From: an uncultured Planctomycetia bacterium
Lineage (GTDB): Bacteria; Omnitrophota; Gorgyraeia; 2-02-FULL-51-18; JAGOUK01
DNA: 64,000 nt
Direction of reading: 5' to 3'
Assembly (NCBI GenBank): GCA_964430735.1
Contig: CAYSFB010000003.1
Span: forward strand, 194,039-258,038
Shown here: in pieces, positions 7,844 to 12,461 of the stretch
Layout of the letters: the number at the start of each line of letters is the position of its first letter
Position numbering within the stretch: position 1 is the first letter of the stretch
Notes under the pieces: generated by a model
Told to the model about the DNA's origin: nothing
Databases searched by the model: none
The model's input: the letters and a program-made list of their open reading frames with translations, nothing else
Position numbers and translations under genes: made by a program

Positions 7844-9483
7844 GCCGCGGCGGCGGGACCGGAGAGAGAAAATCCGCTCAGCGTGTCGCTCAGACGCCGC
7901 GCGATCTTCTGGGCCATCTCGATCTCGGAAGCTTCGAAGGTCTTGTGGTACGTCAGCGTCGAAAGATTCAGGACGCCGATCGGTGTCGAGTGACGCCACA
8001 GCGGAATGCAGGCGATGGACTTGACGGACATTCCGGAGCGCTCGTCCTCCTTCATCCGCGACACACAGATCGTTTTGAGGTCCTTGAGCGACATTCCGGC
8101 GAGTCCTTCGCCCATCGCGAACGTGCGCCCCGAAAATGGATAGACCCGGTAACCCTTGGCGGCGAAGGTGCGCAGACGTTTTTCTCTCGGGTCCAAGATC
8201 ATGAGCGAGGCGCGCTCGACGCCGGTGAGGTCCAGGAACACGTTGAGGTAGCGGTCCAGGGACTCCTCCCACTGCGTCGTGCGGTCCGGCGATAGTTCTT
8301 TTTCGATCGCCGCGACGAGCTTGGCGTGCTTTTGATTGCGCAAAAAATTCTGAAGACCGAACACGGTTGCGCTCAGGGATTTGACGAGGCGCTCGGCCAG
8401 CTTGACGCGCTCGGACGTGAGATGCGCCCCGGCCGCCGAGGCCATCCAGACGAACCCGATCGACTCTTCGTGGAAAGCGAGCGGGAAAAACACGTATTCC
8501 CCCGCCTGCGGAAGGCGCGACGCGGCAAAAATCGACTCGAGCGCCTCGCGATTGTCGCGGCGGACGACCTTTTTAAAGGGCTGCTCAAAAAGACTTTCGC
8601 GATGGTCTGGCAGCAGAATCGAAAGCCGGCACTCGCTCACGAGCTCAGCGCGGACGGCCGAGCGGTCCTTGCGCGGCGCGTAGAGCCGGAGCTTGGTCTT
8701 GCGCTCGTCCAAAAGGCCGCAAAAAACTTCGCATTCCGGATGCAGCCCCTTGAGCGCCGACTTGAAAAAGATCCCCAGCGCCGTCGCGATATCCCGCGCA
8801 TGCTCGAGGCGGCGGGCCAACTCGTACACTTCGCGATATCCGGTTCCGGTGTCGCTGAGCTTGCGGTTGATCCGGGAAACGGCCTGATCGAGCTCCGTGA
8901 AACGCTGTGAGCTCACCGAAAAGAGGTCCTTTTCGAGCCCTTCGATCTGACGGCGCATGGCGTCGTTTTCTTTGCGCGCTTCGGCGGATTTGAGCTCCCA
9001 CTGCCGCTGGACGTCACGGAAATACGCCATCGCCATGACGGAGCTGCCGAACTGCGCCAGCTCGTCAAACGCCAGCACCATTTCCGCCGGAAGCGGCGCG
9101 CCGTCAAAGTCCGACAAACACCGCACACAGGCTTCGCGGAACAGATGGACGCACAAGAGCACTTCTTCAAAAGGGGTCGAGAGCTCGAAAAAAACACGCG
9201 CCGATTTCTGAAGCTCCTCGGCGAAGCGGTCCATATCCCGCTCCTGCAGACACTCGAGGTAGCGGCGGGCCAGCGGATCCAGGACGCGGCGGACACGGGA
9301 TTGCGTCAGGTACGGGCGGTCCTGAAAATGATCGAGATAGCGGCGGATCCAGGAATCCGCGACACGGTCCGGATCGCTGCCGAGCCGTCCGATCGCCCGC
9401 TCGAAATCCTCGCGAGCGACAAAACTCCCGATCCGGGAGTGGAGCGCGAGGACCTGATTCGAGACGTCGGCAATTTTCATCAT
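7840..9483 (-). CDS. GAF domain-containing protein with N-terminal sensor-like region and coiled coil (no output domain)
   Basis: A 547-aa protein with two GAF-like regions in its C-terminal half. It is translationally coupled to the helicase by an ATGA overlap. Confidence 0.55.
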   Translation of the reverse strand: MMKIADVSNQVLALHSRIGSFVAREDFERAIGRLGSDPDRVADSWIRRYLDHFQDRPYLTQSRVRRVLDPLARRYLECLQERDMDRFAEELQKSARVFFELSTPFEEVLLCVHLFREACVRCLSDFDGAPLPAEMVLAFDELAQFGSSVMAMAYFRDVQRQWELKSAEARKENDAMRRQIEGLEKDLFSVSSQRFTELDQAVSRINRKLSDTGTGYREVYELARRLEHARDIATALGIFFKSALKGLHPECEVFCGLLDERKTKLRLYAPRKDRSAVRAELVSECRLSILLPDHRESLFEQPFKKVVRRDNREALESIFAASRLPQAGEYVFFPLAFHEESIGFVWMASAAGAHLTSERVKLAERLVKSLSATVFGLQNFLRNQKHAKLVAAIEKELSPDRTTQWEESLDRYLNVFLDLTGVERASLMILDPREKRLRTFAAKGYRVYPFSGRTFAMGEGLAGMSLKDLKTICVSRMKEDERSGMSVKSIACIPLWRHSTPIGVLNLSTLTYHKTFEASEIEMAQKIARRLSDTLSGFSLSGPAAAA

Positions 9484-9863
9484 GATTCGGAAGGAGGTGC
9501 GGCTGGCGCTTCGGTCTTGGGCTTTGGAGGATCGAGCACGAATTCGGGCTCGATAATGGGCTTGTTGTTCTGGGTCAAAGCGAACGGAAACGTGACGATC
9601 TCAAATAGACCGACGGCGGTCCTTTGGACGGCGCGGCCGGTGCCGTGCACCAATCCCCAAGTCGCGGCGGCGCCGATTCCGTGCTGATGACCGATCTCCT
9701 GAACTCCGTTGGGAATTTCGAGCCAGCCCAAGCCTGTATTGGCTGCGCCGCGGCGCAGCCGCTTGCCCATCAGGTCCAGAGCGGGCTCCTGCTTTGGCTC
9801 GTCGGCCTGTGCGACCGCCGGAAGCATGAGCAGCACAATGAGAAAAAAAGCCGCCTTCTTCAT
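9480..9863 (-). CDS. small secreted protein (signal peptide), hypothetical
   Basis: It has an N-terminal signal peptide (MKKAAFFLIVLLMLPAVAQA). There is a 4-nt overlap with the downstream gene. Confidence 0.45.
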   Translation of the reverse strand: MKKAAFFLIVLLMLPAVAQADEPKQEPALDLMGKRLRRGAANTGLGWLEIPNGVQEIGHQHGIGAAATWGLVHGTGRAVQRTAVGLFEIVTFPFALTQNNKPIIEPEFVLDPPKPKTEAPAAPPSES

Positions 9864-10516
9864 CCGCGCGGTCCGGACGGCATATCCGGATCCTCCCCAC
9901 CTTCTTCGTCTTCGTCCGGATCCATTGAATCGTCTTCCAAGTCATCTTCCTCGTCCTCGGCATCCTCGCCCATTTCGTTCGCGTCGGGCCCCAGGATAAA
10001 ATCCGCGTCCTTTTTCTTGCCGGGCGAAGCTTCGAGCTGCTTGAAAAATTCTTCGGCGGTCATCGTCTTCAGCTCTTCCTTGAACTTGTCGACTTCTTCC
10101 TTGCTGATGGGTTTTTCGACCGTAGGGCACTTCTCCATCACCTTGGGATCGATGAAAATGGGCGATTTGGTGCGGACCGCGATGGCGAGAGAATCCGAAG
10201 GCCGCGCGTCAATCACGAAGGTCTTGCCCTTCAATGCGAGCGTGATCTCGGCGTAATAACTGTTGTCCTTGATGTCGGTGATCGTGACGCGTTCGACGGT
10301 GACGCCCAGGTCGGCGAACATGTTGACGATCAGGTCATGCGTGAGCGGCCGCGGAAACTTTTCGCCGTTCATTTCCAGGGCGATCGCATTGCCTTCGCTG
10401 ACGCCGATCCAGATGGGAACGAGACGGGTTTTTTCGACGTCCTCAAGAACGACGACGTATTGGGGCAGCGGGAACAGGGAGACGAGCGACGAGATAAAGG
10501 CTTGCTTCATGCTCAC
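9860..10516 (-). CDS. bifunctional nuclease family protein (BFN/DUF151) with polyacidic C-terminal tail
   Basis: A DUF151-like core (LVPIWIG...EAxAIA) is followed by a D/E-rich tail. Confidence 0.65.
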   Translation of the reverse strand: MSMKQAFISSLVSLFPLPQYVVVLEDVEKTRLVPIWIGVSEGNAIALEMNGEKFPRPLTHDLIVNMFADLGVTVERVTITDIKDNSYYAEITLALKGKTFVIDARPSDSLAIAVRTKSPIFIDPKVMEKCPTVEKPISKEEVDKFKEELKTMTAEEFFKQLEASPGKKKDADFILGPDANEMGEDAEDEEDDLEDDSMDPDEDEEGGEDPDMPSGPRG

Positions 10517-11628
10517 TCAATCTCGATCACCGAATCAATTCCGCCGAACGGGTTGGGCTCCGCGAGGTTGTTGGAAGGGTCGGCCATCCACTTGCCGTCG
10601 ACGACGAACTTGTAACGGTAACGGCCGGGCTCAAGGATGAGACGTTTCTGCCACGCGCCCTTCCCCTGGTCCCAAAGCTTCGATGATTCGTCCAAGCGCC
10701 AGTTATTAAAGTCGCCCACCAAATAAACCTGACGCGCACTGGAAGAGTTGATCACAAAGTCGCGGACCCGCGAGCGGGAATCGTAGCGCGCGGAACCGTC
10801 GCCGATCTCGGGACGTTTGAGCCCCGCCTCGCCGAGCTTGCCGGCGATTTCGCGCGCCAGCGCGTCATAGTCCTCTGCCGCGCGGGAGCGGGGGTCGTGC
10901 ATGCGCACGGGGATGCCGGCCTGCTGAGACTCGCGGCAGGCGACGTTTTGGCGAATCGACGTTTCGAAGAGATTGTCGCGGAACGCGTCGCGAACGCGGC
11001 CCATCATGTCTTTGGCGAACCGGCTGCGCAGATCGACCATCGTGACCAGCGCAAACACGCGGGGCGCGTACTGCATCTTCACGCGGATCAATTCGATCAT
11101 GCTGAGGAGCTTCGCGACGCCGAACAGCGCGAAGGATCCCAGTTCCACCGGAACGAGCGCGAGATCGGCTGCAAACAGTGCGTTGAAGGTCAAAAATCCC
11201 AAGCTTGGCGGACAGTCGAGAATGATGTATTCGTATGGGAACACCATGTTCTCGAGCACTTGCTTGAGCTTGCCGACGGCCTGGTCCTTTTCCACAAACT
11301 CCTGCTCGATGGTCGAGAGAAGGACGTGTCCGGGGGCGACGTCGAAGTTTTCGGAATACGGCTGGATGATGTTCTCGATGAACTGCTTCTGGTCGGAACG
11401 GTCCGAAAGGACGTTGTAAATCGAGGCGGTCAGGTAATCGGGCTTGAGCCCCAAACCGATCGACGCGTGAGTCTGCGGATCCAGATCGATGAGAAGCGTG
11501 CGGCGGCCCTGAGCAGCCAGAGATGCGGCCAAATTGATCGCGGTCGTCGTCTTGGCGCACCCACCCTTCTGATTCGTGACCGCGATGATCATGGGGTTTA
11601 TCCGGCGTTCGTCTCGGACGGAATCCAC
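10513..11628 (-). CDS. ParA/MinD-family ATPase fused to C-terminal CBM48 (AMPK-beta glycogen-binding) domain
   Basis: - The N-terminal region has a deviant Walker A (KGGCAKTT) and a ParA Walker B (ILDCPPSLG).
- The C-terminus (VYLVGDFNNW...YRYKFVVDGKWMADPSN...SVIEIE) matches the AMPK-beta GBD/CBM48 consensus.
- The start is ambiguous: GTG at 11628, or ATG at 11592 (MIIAVTNQKGG). Confidence 0.8.
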   Translation of the reverse strand: MDSVRDERRINPMIIAVTNQKGGCAKTTTAINLAASLAAQGRRTLLIDLDPQTHASIGLGLKPDYLTASIYNVLSDRSDQKQFIENIIQPYSENFDVAPGHVLLSTIEQEFVEKDQAVGKLKQVLENMVFPYEYIILDCPPSLGFLTFNALFAADLALVPVELGSFALFGVAKLLSMIELIRVKMQYAPRVFALVTMVDLRSRFAKDMMGRVRDAFRDNLFETSIRQNVACRESQQAGIPVRMHDPRSRAAEDYDALAREIAGKLGEAGLKRPEIGDGSARYDSRSRVRDFVINSSSARQVYLVGDFNNWRLDESSKLWDQGKGAWQKRLILEPGRYRYKFVVDGKWMADPSNNLAEPNPFGGIDSVIEIE

Positions 11629-12461
11629 TGGACGTTACGGATCAAGATCGTTGCATCGGCGGAGTTTCCGGTGCGCTGGCTTCCAAATTCGATGCGCAAC
11701 TGCTGGATCGCGTTCGGATTGAAGAAACGACTCGGCTCGAAGTCGATCACGGCCGGCTGCCAGTCGGTGGATACGCCCCCCTCAAACGGCACGATCGGCT
11801 TCCAGTTGAGGCTGGTGTTGCCGTTGGCGTCCTTGAAGACGATTTCGAACTTCTCCCCGCCCTTCATGCCGCGTGCCTCGAAGTACAGGCGCTTGCCCAG
11901 AGCCGGCAGCGGCGGATTAAAATTTGCGTGCGCGTATGCAAGACCGGAGACGGACGAGTTGGTCAGCACGAGTTGCTGCTTCTCTCGCGTGCTGCGCAGC
12001 AGGGCCGCGCCCGAAAAAATAAAATCGGACGGGGACATCGGAAGCGCTTCGGCGATGGCGGCCCGGGCCGCGGGACGCCCGGCGTCCGATGGGGCGGCGG
12101 CCGCAACCGCGCCGGAATCCGGCTGAGGGACAGCCGAGTCCATGATCCGGATATCCACCGCGATGCGCTTGGTCGAAAAAAGGGCAAATGCCGAAAGGGC
12201 CAGCGCGAGCAGCGTGATCACCCACGGCAGGAAATAGGAGCGCGACCGGTCCACGATGCGCACCACGGTCGGCGCGTGAAACGGTGCCTGAGGATCCTCC
12301 GCAATCTGCTGCTTAGGGTTCTGAAAATAGACGTCCGCCAGCTGCTCATGAATTTCGCGGCGGGCGGAACGGTCGGACTGCGAGGCCGGTGATGTCTGCG
12401 CCGCCTCGATGCCCGTTGGGGTGCCGAATCTTTTTTGAAGCGAATCGATGATTTTGCTCAC
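11598..12461 (-). CDS. single-pass membrane protein, hypothetical (cytoplasmic N-term, periplasmic C-terminal domain)
   Basis: A 287-aa protein with one TM helix (FLPWVITLLALALSAFALF). It is co-directional and adjacent to, or overlapping, the ParA-CBM48 gene. Confidence 0.45.
   Translation of the reverse strand: MSKIIDSLQKRFGTPTGIEAAQTSPASQSDRSARREIHEQLADVYFQNPKQQIAEDPQAPFHAPTVVRIVDRSRSYFLPWVITLLALALSAFALFSTKRIAVDIRIMDSAVPQPDSGAVAAAAPSDAGRPAARAAIAEALPMSPSDFIFSGAALLRSTREKQQLVLTNSSVSGLAYAHANFNPPLPALGKRLYFEARGMKGGEKFEIVFKDANGNTSLNWKPIVPFEGGVSTDWQPAVIDFEPSRFFNPNAIQQLRIEFGSQRTGNSADATILIRNVQWIPSETNAG

Follow-up and report, generated by a model that had tools for sequence, protein, structure and literature searches.

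ATPases of the ParA/MinD type are the general bacterial means of placing large objects, be they chromosomes and plasmids, carboxysomes, arrays of chemoreceptors, flagella or the divisome, and in the known ParA systems the element that binds the cargo is found on the partner protein and not on the ATPase. In McdA/McdB, PomXYZ, PpfA/TlpT and ParC/ParP a ParA-family ATPase is encoded beside a fast-evolving partner; cargo binding falls to the partner, and the ATPase binds nothing but the matrix. Among the carbon stores of bacteria glycogen is the most widespread, and no system that positions or partitions it was found described in the searchable literature. The locus analysed here lies in a window of 64,000 nucleotides (the whole stretch of DNA that was analysed). 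It resembles the above pairs in its ParA-family ATPase, in an adjacent fast-evolving partner presumed to stimulate the ATPase via an N-terminal peptide, and in a presumed cargo that is a non-DNA cytoplasmic body, but here the putative cargo module is carried by the ATPase. Also, its ATPase domain is only 18% identical to McdA. The features are listed below.

10513..11592, minus strand: ParA-CBM48 fusion gene, 359 aa, stop codon at 10513-10515 (ORF list and public gene call)
10831..11592, minus strand: Soj/ParA-type deviant Walker A ATPase domain, residues 1-254 (Pfam, PDB phmmer, Foldseek)
10768..10830, minus strand: flexible linker, about residues 255-275 (AlphaFold pLDDT and alignment)
10516..10767, minus strand: AMPK-beta-type CBM48 beta-sandwich, residues 276-359 (PF16561, PDB matches, pLDDT ~90)
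11598..12461, minus strand: partner gene, 287 aa, predicted type-II single-pass inner-membrane protein (ORF and gene call)
12426..12461, minus strand: N-terminal helix MSKIIDSLQKRF of the partner (alignment; M1, S2, K3 and I5 invariant)
12324..12341, minus strand: LADVYF motif of the partner, residues 41-46, in the predicted cytoplasmic tail (alignment)
12177..12233, minus strand: transmembrane helix of the partner, residues 77-95 (Kyte-Doolittle and model)
11610..12044, minus strand: beta jelly-roll of the partner, predicted extracytoplasmic, residues 140-284 (pLDDT >90, Foldseek)

Both predicted ORFs are present on the minus strand, and KGGCAKTT, ILDCPP, VYLVGDFNNW, YRYKFVVDGKWMADPSN and SVIEIE are all found in the translation. 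The start codon of the fusion gene is ATG 11592, which is M13 of a 371-aa ORF; it is almost certainly the true start, as the public gene call on identical contigs also places it there and all fusion homologues in the alignment begin M-x-[IV]-I-A, while the longer ORF from GTG 11628 adds 12 residues that are unsupported. Therefore the partner gene and the fusion gene are adjacent without overlap, and the overlap claimed in the original prediction turns out to be a gap of 5 nt (TAA-ACCCC-ATG). With so short a spacer between the partner gene and the ATPase gene, co-translation of the two is probable, and a search for terminators gave no signal above the chance level.

The N-terminal part had been predicted to be a genuine ParA-type ATPase, and it is indeed a member of the ParA/MinD superfamily of deviant Walker A P-loop ATPases. 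Pfam matches AAA_31 (1.2e-49) and CbiA (8e-18) over residues 14-241 of the 371-aa ORF, a phmmer search of the PDB returns ParA 8RAY (1.2e-50) and Soj 1WCV (2.8e-38), and Foldseek gives a target-normalised TM of ~0.9 to Soj/ParA. The domain carries KGGCAKT with signature lysines K9 and K14, D36/D38 and the Walker B D126. Residue conservation was counted over 81 fusion sequences or loci, in all of which K9, K14, T15, D36, D38 and D126 are unchanged, which argues for an active enzyme. Family-specific features are C12, H42, TIEQEF and GFLTFNAL, and since C12, H42, Q97, F133 and F136 are invariant the family forms a distinct orthologous group. The ATPases of ParABS systems (M. xanthus ParA 8RAY, T. 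thermophilus Soj 1WCV and H. pylori Soj 6IUB) share with it the fold at about 37-45% identity, the deviant Walker A with its signature lysine and the equivalent of Soj R189. The fusion differs from them by its C-terminal CBM48, by the Walker A cysteine and the residues Q97, F133 and F136, and by the lack of a ParB/Srx-HTH protein and of parS. It also misses the ParA_partition cut-off of NCBIfam (NF041546, 109.7 bits against 180). Assignment to MinD fails likewise (TIGR01968, 51.9 against 212.9; TIGR01969, 65.7 against 201.75), its C-terminus being a CBM, and so does assignment to BcsQ (TIGR03371, 70.4 bits against 157.85). Neither Min nor bcs genes are found within +/-10 kb of the fusion in the precomputed Pfam calls, and no NCBIfam equivalog cut-off is passed. 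Against the PADLOC defence models the partner has no match, and that of the ATPase is limited to the P-loop, at 18 bits. As to the basic residues, the Soj R189 equivalent is present in 80 of the 81 sequences and position 218 (equivalent to MxParA R238 and HpSoj K230) is K or R in 69, which makes DNA binding by the family plausible. In the window protein the equivalents of HpSoj K199 and K247 are K194 and R, but position 218 is Ala (Ala or Ser throughout its clade), and therefore the nucleoid as a matrix is uncertain for this protein.

The linker has pLDDT <50 at residues 256-273, and its length and sequence differ among the homologues, which leaves gaps in the alignment there. The AlphaFold model thus has two folded domains with a flexible stretch between them, as had been anticipated. 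The C-terminal domain matches AMPK1_CBM (PF16561) over residues 297-370 of the 371-aa ORF, its score of 46.0 bits exceeding the gathering threshold of 26.8. The Pfam families expected in the original prediction were therefore recovered (AAA_31, CbiA and AMPK1_CBM), except that the generic CBM_48 (PF02922) stays at 18.6 bits, below its cut-off of 22.4. In the PDB the C-terminal 105 aa match the pullulanase CBM48 5ot1 (1.1e-8) and, at 2.6e-8 or weaker, the CBMs of AMPK beta1 and beta2, and all the significant solved relatives (pullulanase, AMPK beta, LSF1, SEX4) are binders of alpha-glucans. The same beta-sandwich family and Trp-Lys/Arg-Trp-Asn/Asp positions are kept, and as in AMPK and SEX4 the CBM sits with a regulatory or enzymatic domain and not with a glycoside hydrolase; the attachment to a P-loop ATPase is different, and no description of such an architecture was found. 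The similarity to AMPK beta had been described as nearly residue for residue, which is overstated (~23 of 76 aligned positions, or ~30%, are identical to beta1), yet the functional residues do match. The carbohydrate contacts of AMPK beta1 are W100, K126, W133, L146 and N150 (the 1Z0M/1Z0N work), and these align with W298, K328, W335, F349 and D353, which would form the putative alpha-glucan site. Both tryptophans are present in 81 of 81 sequences, position 328 is R or K in 73, and position 353 is N or D in 78 (N in 48, D in 30). It may be noted that this CBM subtype is also abundant in secreted proteins that carry several copies of it, and therefore the fold alone does not specify glycogen granules.

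The best 80 genomic relatives all cover query residues 2-359. When the ATPase domain alone was used as query, PF16561 was found in 116 of the 120 best matches, the other 4 being short fragments, and it is precomputed on all 120 of the top full-length homologues. The pairing is an obligate fusion and not a chance juxtaposition. Its hosts belong to at least six phyla (Omnitrophota, Planctomycetota, Myxococcota, Thermodesulfobacteriota, Rokubacteria and Gemmatimonadales), so that the search for orthologous fusions proposed earlier reveals a widespread multi-phylum family and no oddity of one genome. In the sources its members go by 'AAA family ATPase' or by 'chromosome partitioning protein' and by no more specific name, and none of the sources gives a functional annotation. 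No publication on a ParA-CBM48 family was found in the searchable literature, in line with the claim that the system is uncharacterised.

The upstream gene does encode a single-pass membrane protein, as predicted, and in the lineage of the window it is kept beside the fusion, being immediately upstream of it in the window and in the related loci L001-L005 and L015. The Kyte-Doolittle maximum for a 19-residue window is 2.27 at residue 77, and the model has a helix at 77-95. The Lys-rich N-side in shorter homologues suggests an N-in orientation. The partner has no Pfam or NCBIfam match, and the search for homologues yielded just 17, which have either no name or that of 'hypothetical protein'. 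For its jelly-roll the top PDB matches in Foldseek are CBM30, CBM11, CBM4 and CBM16 (E 1e-6 to 1e-4, TM ~0.5), and one homologue has a weak Pfam CBM30 match (19 bits, below cut-off). On the N-terminal side the partner carries an invariant MSKII, modelled as a helix at residues 3-12, which may contact the ATPase, followed by LADVYF, of which L41, A42, D43, Y45 and F46 are invariant. The other membrane partners of Omnitrophota, of ~187 aa, carry a related motif LAKIYL and align with the 287-aa protein only moderately (hhalign probability 55%, E 1.2e-4).

A related peptide is more widely distributed than these proteins. In 63 of the 81 loci the adjacent same-strand ORF opens with an N-terminal peptide of this kind (LGRGLEDVSHLFLS or LADVLHYFL), as against 5 of 2967 other (background) ORFs with the same motif patterns, the regexes for both counts having been written post hoc after the data were seen. 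This ParB-like peptide at the head of the adjacent gene is new. Beyond it the rest of the adjacent protein varies. Peptide-bearing partners from outside Omnitrophota match nothing or, weakly, MinD-like or NucS-like families; their bodies differ from ParB, as does that of the membrane protein here. In M. xanthus the pattern L11-x-R13-x-L15-x-x-L18 is required for ParB-ParA binding (PMC12462528), and 'LGRGLxxV' of the partner peptides reproduces it; many members of the family share with ParABS an adjacent gene product opening with an LGRGL-type peptide. The pocket is shared as well, with hydrophobic residues at the positions that receive the ParB N-terminal peptide: V116, L150, L152, L155, L187 and L192 of MxParA correspond to Q97, L131, F133, F136, L168 and M173 in the fusion. 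The changes Q97, F133 and F136 are invariant throughout the family, as one would expect if a variant peptide had co-evolved with them, and an interaction of peptide and ATPase may be inferred. The LADVYF of the window aligns with the peptides of other phyla (LADVLHYFL, RDLADVLHYFL or LGRGLEDVSHLFLS) and is a candidate ParB-like peptide for binding and activating the ATPase. Therefore a ParB-analogous activator is probably present at the window locus. The original prediction that a ParB-like partner is lacking holds for the gene itself, as no ParB lies within +/-10 kb of the fusion in the precomputed Pfam calls, but not for the membrane partner, which bears the motif. Its statement that no centromere-like element is nearby agrees with our search, in which neither a site of the parS consensus with <=3 mismatches nor iterated repeats or iterons were found in the 64-kb window; a second ParA was also not found there.

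As for the surroundings, no homologues of glgA/B/C/P/X or malQ/P are present in the 64-kb window, and most related loci also have no glg/mal genes. A GH57 alpha-glucan enzyme, however, is encoded near the fusion in about 20 related loci. In a group of 29 Omnitrophota loci it lies (6.6e-67) two genes upstream in the majority, namely 18, and a different GH57 subtype occurs in other arrangements in L013 and L037. The synteny is concentrated in one Omnitrophota clade and therefore represents few independent events. The link to alpha-glucan is drawn because the sugar-binding residues are conserved and GH57 is near these loci. In one study most Omnitrophota MAGs encode glycogen synthesis (PMC8542988). 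In the window the surrounding genes serve DNA metabolism (RmuC, a PC4-like ssDNA binder, BFN nuclease and UvrD), and part of this synteny recurs in L001-L003. The fusion has no signal peptide and a soluble ATPase, which places it in the cytoplasm. To our knowledge glycogen is the only abundant cytoplasmic alpha-glucan, and it is the likely ligand of the CBM48 as judged from the residues above.

We tentatively propose, at somewhat less than an even chance, a switch powered by ATP that would tie glycogen in the cytoplasm to the nucleoid, the membrane or both and would be reset by the ParB-like partner. The first gene product, a Soj-type ParA, would dimerise on ATP like other deviant Walker A ATPases, and its CBM48, on a flexible linker of ~20 residues, would most likely bind cytoplasmic glycogen (alpha-1,4/1,6-glucan). 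Because a dimer carries two CBM48 modules, ATP-bound dimers would be bivalent for glycogen; in most family members they would also keep the basic DNA-binding residues of Soj, and glycogen granules may therefore be tethered to the nucleoid. The window clade has lost one key basic residue, and there the membrane partner may be the main anchor instead. With MinD the proposal shares a C-terminal extension by which the ATP-bound dimer is held on a surface, gaining avidity as it dimerises, and an activator (MinE in that case) that works through a short peptide; it differs in that the appendage is an 84-residue CBM and not an amphipathic helix, MinC and MinE are absent and the sequence is nearer to Soj. 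The second gene product would regulate the first, its cytoplasmic tail presenting the MSKII helix and LADVYF, a short hydrophobic peptide related to the ParA-binding peptide at the ParB N-terminus. This peptide would dock in the hydrophobic pocket at the dimer interface, trigger ATP hydrolysis and release monomers, and with repeated cycles glycogen granules could become spaced, anchored or partitioned, or their position coupled to the envelope. Granule positioning as the outcome would resemble that of PhaM/PhaF, where a storage-polymer granule is tied to the nucleoid for inheritance by the daughters, but those proteins are not ATPases and their polymer and binding domains are unlike those of the fusion. 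A membrane partner with an extracytoplasmic domain fits granule partition awkwardly. Domain architecture, conservation, the adjacency of a peptide-bearing partner and the catalytic and sugar-platform residues are observed directly. The broader proposal of a hitherto unrecognised multi-phylum glycogen-granule positioning system, with a dedicated ParA-type ATPase and interchangeable partners whose ParB-like peptides reset the cycle, is doubtful, though it has a real chance. In it the granule surface may itself serve as an ATP-dependent binding matrix, as the membrane does for MinD, because the ATPase carries the granule-binding module.

The two-gene module is conserved and uncharacterised, and suggests that bacteria may actively organise their glycogen stores; the family offers a concrete, testable candidate for this in at least six phyla. 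Its design is unusual, in that the ATPase itself bears the module for binding cargo or matrix and a portable ParB-like peptide sits on partners that vary, and could show how ParA systems acquire new cargos. It would also extend to bacteria the AMPK-type theme of a glycogen-sensing module on a nucleotide-dependent regulator. If the broader proposal is true, the Omnitrophota partner, with its outward-facing domain like a glycan-binding one, would link sensing or binding outside the cell to glycogen location inside. The conserved peptide motif and the pocket substitutions are ready mutational targets.

Among the other explanations the likeliest, though still unlikely, is an envelope glycan system. 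Here the ATPase, acting like BcsQ or another ParA/MinD-type organiser of polysaccharide machinery, would, through the membrane partner, place or regulate an envelope-spanning complex for glucan uptake, export or sensing, the CBM48 binding nascent, imported or exported alpha-glucan and the CBM-like periplasmic domain of the partner binding glycan outside the cytoplasm. The jelly-roll of the partner (like CBM30/11/4/16), the frequency of this CBM type in secreted proteins, a TIGR04073 gene downstream in the window and a PEP-CTERM protein in a Pirellulales locus fit such a role, as do many Omnitrophota operons that consist of an Alginate_exp-type outer-membrane porin (3.8e-25), GH57, the membrane partner and the ATPase. 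BcsQ structures are among the Foldseek matches, and BcsQ is likewise an ATPase of the ParA/MinD fold that acts together with polysaccharide machinery in the membrane region. But the ATPase is nearer to Soj than to BcsQ (TM 0.65 vs 0.55, identity 40% vs 19%). BcsQ, at 19-20% identity, has no CBM, and the TIGR03371 score is 70 against a cut-off of 158; bcs genes are absent nearby, and neither a glycosyltransferase nor a synthase adjoins the module. The GH57 proteins examined start without a signal-peptide-like segment, suggesting a cytoplasmic enzyme, and outside Omnitrophota the partner has no recognisable membrane or carbohydrate-binding domain while the CBM48 fusion is still fully conserved.

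Quite improbable is a (second) Soj-like DNA-partition ATPase with a CBM48 that would sense the state of the glycogen store, as it does in AMPK, and link segregation or the control of replication to energy reserves. The nearest relatives in sequence and fold are indeed chromosomal ParA/Soj proteins, the basic residues are largely kept (R189 equivalent in 80/81, K/R at 218 in 69/81), the partner peptide is like the ParB N-terminal motif, and the DNA-metabolism neighbours (partly recurring in L001-L003) and the NucS-like protein after the module in several phyla point the same way. Yet no ParB/Srx or HTH partner is found within +/-10 kb, nor parS or iterons in the 64-kb window, where the partner is a membrane protein and the clade has no R238-equivalent basic residue. 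The ParA_partition score (110 against 180) and the invariant signatures C12, H42, Q97, F133 and F136 also set the family apart, and in a complete Myxococcota chromosome of 6.25 Mb the gene is at 2.73 Mb, perhaps far from the origin. A little more improbable still is that the CBM48-like fold is a module for protein or other ligands that recruits the ATPase to some cytoplasmic structure with no glycan binding. The CBM of AMPK makes protein contacts too, AMPK1_CBM-like folds occur in non-glycogen contexts, weak matches are seen to an NCBIfam T9SS plug (27.7 bits) and to the PDB 'Plug' 6h3j (E 0.27), and the 64-kb window has no glycogen gene. Against this stand two platform tryptophans that never change and K/R and N/D positions kept across at least six phyla, which would not be expected of an unused sugar site; the alpha-glucan binding of all significant solved relatives and the GH57 synteny argue likewise.

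Some minor observations concern the genes beyond the module. A NucS-like protein follows it in several phyla. In the window an exosortase-associated TIGR04073 gene lies two genes downstream of the fusion, and in the Pirellulales locus the fusion is followed by a PEP-CTERM protein.

The ATPase gene and the gene of its membrane partner are two closely packed ORFs on the minus strand of the window. The original prediction took the ATPase as a 371-aa ORF (10513..11628) that initiates at GTG and overlaps the upstream gene. However, all homologues start at the methionine that is residue 13 of this ORF (M-I-I-A-V-T-N-Q-K-G-G), and the public gene call on identical contigs places the start at the ATG at 11592; the fusion is therefore taken as 359 aa. 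The stop of the partner gene (11598..12461, 287 aa) lies 5 nt 5′ of this start (TAA ACCCC ATG), so that the genes abut without overlap. Every motif quoted in the prediction is present in the translation. Scans for terminators and promoters around the operon gave results at chance level only.

The proposed fusion of a ParA-type ATPase with a C-terminal CBM48 was borne out by Pfam, which finds AAA_31 (1.2e-49) and CbiA within the first 250 aa and, over the final ~75 aa, AMPK1_CBM (PF16561) with 46.0 bits (gathering score 26.8); the generic CBM_48 model, also named beforehand, stays under threshold. No NCBIfam equivalog was reached by the fusion (ParA_partition 110 vs 180, BcsQ 70 vs 158, MinD 52-66 vs >200). 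Among solved structures, the ATPase part is nearest to M. xanthus ParA (8RAY, 1.2e-50), T. thermophilus Soj and H. pylori Soj, and the C-terminal part to pullulanase CBM48 (1.1e-8) and the AMPK beta1/beta2 CBMs (2.6e-8 and weaker), with the LSF1 and SEX4 glucan phosphatases as the next matches. Identity to AMPK beta1 is ~30%, therefore the description of a CBM48 consensus matched nearly residue for residue was an overstatement. The residues W100, K126, W133, L146 and N150 of AMPK beta1, which make the contacts with sugar (1Z0M/1Z0N), align with W298, K328, W335, F349 and D353 of the fusion. AlphaFold (31-sequence alignment) gave the two folded domains expected, an ATPase domain at residues 1-254 and a confident beta-sandwich at 276-358 (pLDDT ~90), with a disordered linker at 256-273 (pLDDT <50). 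Foldseek gives the ATPase a target-normalised TM of ~0.9 to Soj/ParA, with McdA, BcsQ, MinD and FlhG/FleN far behind; the whole fusion model returned ATPase matches only.

Orthologous fusions were found, full-length, in several phyla. The protein search returned >120 full-length relatives (355-373 aa), every one with PF16561, under the names "AAA family ATPase", "chromosome partitioning protein", "hypothetical protein" and, once, "Nitrogenase iron protein". With the ATPase domain alone as the query, the CBM is carried by 116 of the 120 best matches and is thus obligatory in this ATPase clade; the remaining four are 239-320 aa long, and two of these are known to sit on ~1-kb contigs. A genomic scan with one genome per GTDB species confirmed at least 592 relatives among the 600 candidate stretches listed. 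In all of the 80 best of these (loci numbered from L001), query residues 2-359 are covered; the majority belong to Omnitrophota and the others to Planctomycetota (Phycisphaerae, Pirellulales), Myxococcota, Thermodesulfobacteriota/Desulfobacterales, Rokubacteria, Gemmatimonadales and Eisenbacteria. The closest relatives of the window fusion among the matches listed are labelled Omnitrophota, which makes this phylum the probable source of the window. On aligning the 80 with the window (81 sequences), the catalytic set K9, K14, T15, D36, D38 and D126 is invariant. At position 328, 73 sequences have R or K; at position 353, 48 have N and 30 have D. The family-specific invariants (C12 in the Walker A, H42, TIEQEF and GFLTFNAL) set the family apart from canonical ParA. 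The nitrogenase name belongs to P0067, a protein on a 1.59-Mb contig, and is a wrong annotation that arises since its P-loop resembles that of NifH.

Of 1.84 billion representatives searched by phmmer with the last 91 residues of the fusion, 9418 proteins matched at E <=1e-3, 1757 of them at E <=1e-10. The top matches (P0138-P0287) have 3-18 tandem copies of the CBM; many have a length of ~480 aa and four copies, and some reach 5000-7400 aa. All five tandem proteins inspected (P0148, P0154, P0142, P0144, P0163) have N-terminal signal peptides. As this CBM subtype is common outside the cytoplasm, the fold alone does not indicate a glycogen granule. The fusion ATPase has no signal peptide; its ligand must be cytoplasmic, and among such alpha-glucans glycogen would be the obvious candidate. 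The subtype has a shared signature (FNNW ... YKF[IV]VDG.W ... DP.N ... GG.NS). Look-up of exact-sequence clusters gave neither names nor accessions.

The upstream neighbour is, as proposed, a single-pass membrane protein without an assigned function: it has no match in Pfam or NCBIfam, and none of the only 17 homologues detected has a functional name. In the alignment M1, S2, K3 and I5 at the N-terminus are invariant, as is L41-A-D-V-Y-F46; a hydrophobic helix is also seen, and the C-terminal domain is conserved. AlphaFold models the tail as disordered apart from two short helices (3-12 and 32-40), and then places a transmembrane helix (77-95), a disordered spacer and a confident jelly-roll (140-284). 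The best PDB matches of the jelly-roll are CBM30, CBM11, CBM4 and CBM16 (E ~1e-6, TM ~0.5); the likeness to CBMs is at the level of the fold only. Neighbours were compared by clustering the ORFs of the 80 loci and the window. The partner cluster (c24) lies directly upstream of the fusion in the window, L001-L005 and L015; its place next to the fusion is conserved in the lineage of the window. In 29 other Omnitrophota loci the same place is held by a single-pass protein of ~187 aa (c3) whose N-terminus reads M-x-K-x-[DE]-I-Y-E-H-L-A-K-I-Y-L-D and which also has a poly-Lys stretch, one TM helix and a beta domain. Compared profile to profile, c24 and c3 align colinearly, with only moderate significance (probability 55%, E 1.2e-4).

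In the remaining phyla, the next gene on the downstream side of the fusion opens with KLGRGLEDVSHLFLS or PRDLADVLHYFLP. The body of the protein that bears this peptide varies by lineage: it may be a degenerate relative of MinD/ParA (AAA_31 38.9 bits in L037), show weak similarity to NucS_C, be a planctomycete protein of 480-560 aa, or lack any recognisable domain. The Q-L-A-D-V-Y-F of the window partner matches the myxobacterial D-L-A-D-V-L-H-Y-F save for a two-residue gap. By two regular expressions, composed after the sequences had been seen, the motif is present in the first 120 residues of an adjacent same-strand ORF in 63 of the 81 loci, as against 5 of 2967 other ORFs; several of the misses are one-residue variants or truncated loci. 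The LGRGLxxV core matches the ParA-binding motif of M. xanthus ParB, L11-x-R13-x-L15-x-x-L18 (PMC12462528). The statement that no ParB partner is nearby thus holds for ParB itself, which was not found in the window, but a ParB-analogous activator is probably present, as the membrane partner carries the candidate ParB-like motif. The positions of the ParB-binding pocket of MxParA, mapped through the 8RAY alignment with the offset taken from the D60A substitution, correspond to Q97, L131, F133, F136, L168 and M173 in the window fusion. Judged by these residues the character of the pocket is kept, with three family-invariant changes, as would be expected if pocket and peptide had co-evolved.

The partners also vary in arrangement. 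Two genes follow the fusion in L013:7122-8742, L037:4476-6219, L045:7180-8668 and ~16-19 more loci (Myxococcota, Thermodesulfobacteriota and some Omnitrophota), namely a degenerate MinD/ParA-like protein headed by LGRGLEDxSHLFLS and a protein of ~220 aa weakly similar to NucS_C. It is the NucS-like protein itself that bears the peptide in Rokubacteria and Gemmatimonadales. Loci without a recognisable peptide-bearing partner exist. A 145-aa protein of unknown family (c76) follows the fusion in three delta/Thermodesulfobacteriota loci (L006:7279-7716, L008 and L009), and a secreted P-domain protein with a PEP-CTERM anchor (c182) in two Pirellulales loci (L054:5470-6201 and L070). Myxococcota have a MerR regulator upstream and an ECF-type sigma factor downstream.

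The equivalent of Soj R189 is present in 80 of 81 sequences, and that of MxParA R238/HpSoj K230 is K or R in 69; R238 is the residue mutated to abolish DNA binding in MxParA (PMC12462528). Residue 218, the R238 equivalent (window codon 10939-10941), is Ala or Ser in the window, L001-L009 and L015, a group that takes in all loci with the 250-300-aa c24 partner, and nearly all others have Lys or Arg. From these residues nucleoid binding seems plausible for the family and uncertain for the window fusion, in which the working surface may have shifted from nucleoid to membrane.

A link to alpha-glucans is seen in the gene order of Omnitrophota of the c3 type, which have an Alginate_exp-like outer-membrane porin (3.8e-25), GH57 (6.6e-67), the membrane partner, the ParA-CBM48 fusion, a small membrane protein and a Lys-rich protein. 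Alpha-glucans are the substrates of GH57 enzymes. GH57 is close to the fusion in 18 loci, and a different subtype occurs in other arrangements in L013 and L037 (opposite strand in the latter). Glycogen synthesis has been reported for most Omnitrophota MAGs of Ace Lake (PMC8542988). When E. coli GlgA/B/C/P/X and MalP/Q were used as tblastn queries, the window and 83 loci gave no match other than the CBM itself, and Pfam on ten more large window ORFs gave SUF, BipA, DHQ synthase, HD-GYP, ROK and PfkB with no glg gene; this is neutral as 64 kb of the genome is covered. The window neighbours are RmuC, a PC4-like protein, a BFN-domain nuclease, an exosortase-associated TIGR04073 protein, a GAF protein and UvrD, part of this order being repeated in L001-L003. 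Those flanking the module are:

9860-10516 and 9480-9863, minus strand, BFN-domain (bifunctional nuclease) protein and TIGR04073 protein, directly downstream of the fusion with overlapping stop/start codons
12492-12773, minus strand, PC4/p15-like putative ssDNA-binding protein (PF02229, 3.9e-12), just upstream of the partner gene

We tentatively favour, at somewhat short of an even chance, a switch that organises glycogen. Dimerisation driven by ATP is a general property of this ATPase class. The dimerised fusion would become bivalent for alpha-glucan, with most members also DNA-competent, and would hold glycogen granules to the nucleoid and/or the partner; the ParB-like peptide of the partner would then trigger hydrolysis and free the monomers, and such cycling would set the spacing of the granules, anchor them or partition them. 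Placed at the C-terminus, the binding module follows a logic like that of the C-terminal membrane-targeting helix of MinD, whereas it reverses that of McdAB-type systems, in which the cargo is bound by the partner. The module could instead serve envelope glucan traffic or sensing, as the putative activator in Omnitrophota would be fixed in the inner membrane with its CBM-like domain facing out. We consider this unlikely. Somewhat less likely again is a DNA-segregation ParA with a glycogen sensor, with which the conserved DNA-binding residues of most members are consistent; a search for ParB, parS, iterons and a second ParA found none in the 64-kb window. Slightly more doubtful still is a non-glycan role for the CBM-like fold, in which W298 and W335 are invariant across the 81 sequences.

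The searchable literature, where prefix matching made some searches noisy, yielded no account of a ParA-CBM48 fusion or of glycogen positioned by ParA; also the databases give generic names and no curated model was met, which agrees with the original view that the system had not been characterised. The parts are all of known kinds, and what is new, as far as we can tell, is how they are combined, how broadly the combination occurs and that variable partners carry a portable ParB-like peptide. We infer all the functional steps, and specialists in bacterial cell organisation would want to test the module.

Other neighbours were also noted. A defence island (RmuC, UvrD, nuclease) was considered and rejected, as PADLOC gave generic domain matches only and none for either core protein. 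Recurrent in Myxococcota are ATP-cone/AAA, VWA, MoxR-like AAA, a PGM/PMM-family mutase, DsbA and an M48 peptidase, none of which is glycogen-specific (the mutase might just as well be GlmM). An M48-family (HExxH) membrane peptidase (c34) lies <2 kb from the fusion in Omnitrophota and Myxococcota (L001:3931-5079, L003:2973-4076, L005 at +1.9 kb, L049:3635-4459 and others), assigned by Pfam only for L049 (3e-33) and by the HEIGHH/HELAHH motif for L001 and L003. Two genes recur downstream of the fusion, at L012:7452-7850 (c4, also in 26 other Omnitrophota loci) and L012:7086-7412 (c7). One product is a 108-aa membrane protein with a weak DUF4870 match under the cut-off; the other, of ~130 aa, has a histone-H1-like Lys/Ala/Pro-rich N-terminus, a small beta-barrel and a KIKGHTTDF motif, and might be nucleoid-associated. 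The BFN-domain protein has a strongly acidic C-terminal tail; its gene recurs in L001, L003 and L043, and that of TIGR04073 in L001. RmuC precedes the PC4/p15-like gene, an order shared with L002 and L003. On dividing the 57 GC3-supported window ORFs strandwise, ~50 were found on the minus strand, including BipA and what appear to be SUF genes for Fe-S assembly, as well as an extended series of short to medium genes at 47.5-62.5 kb.
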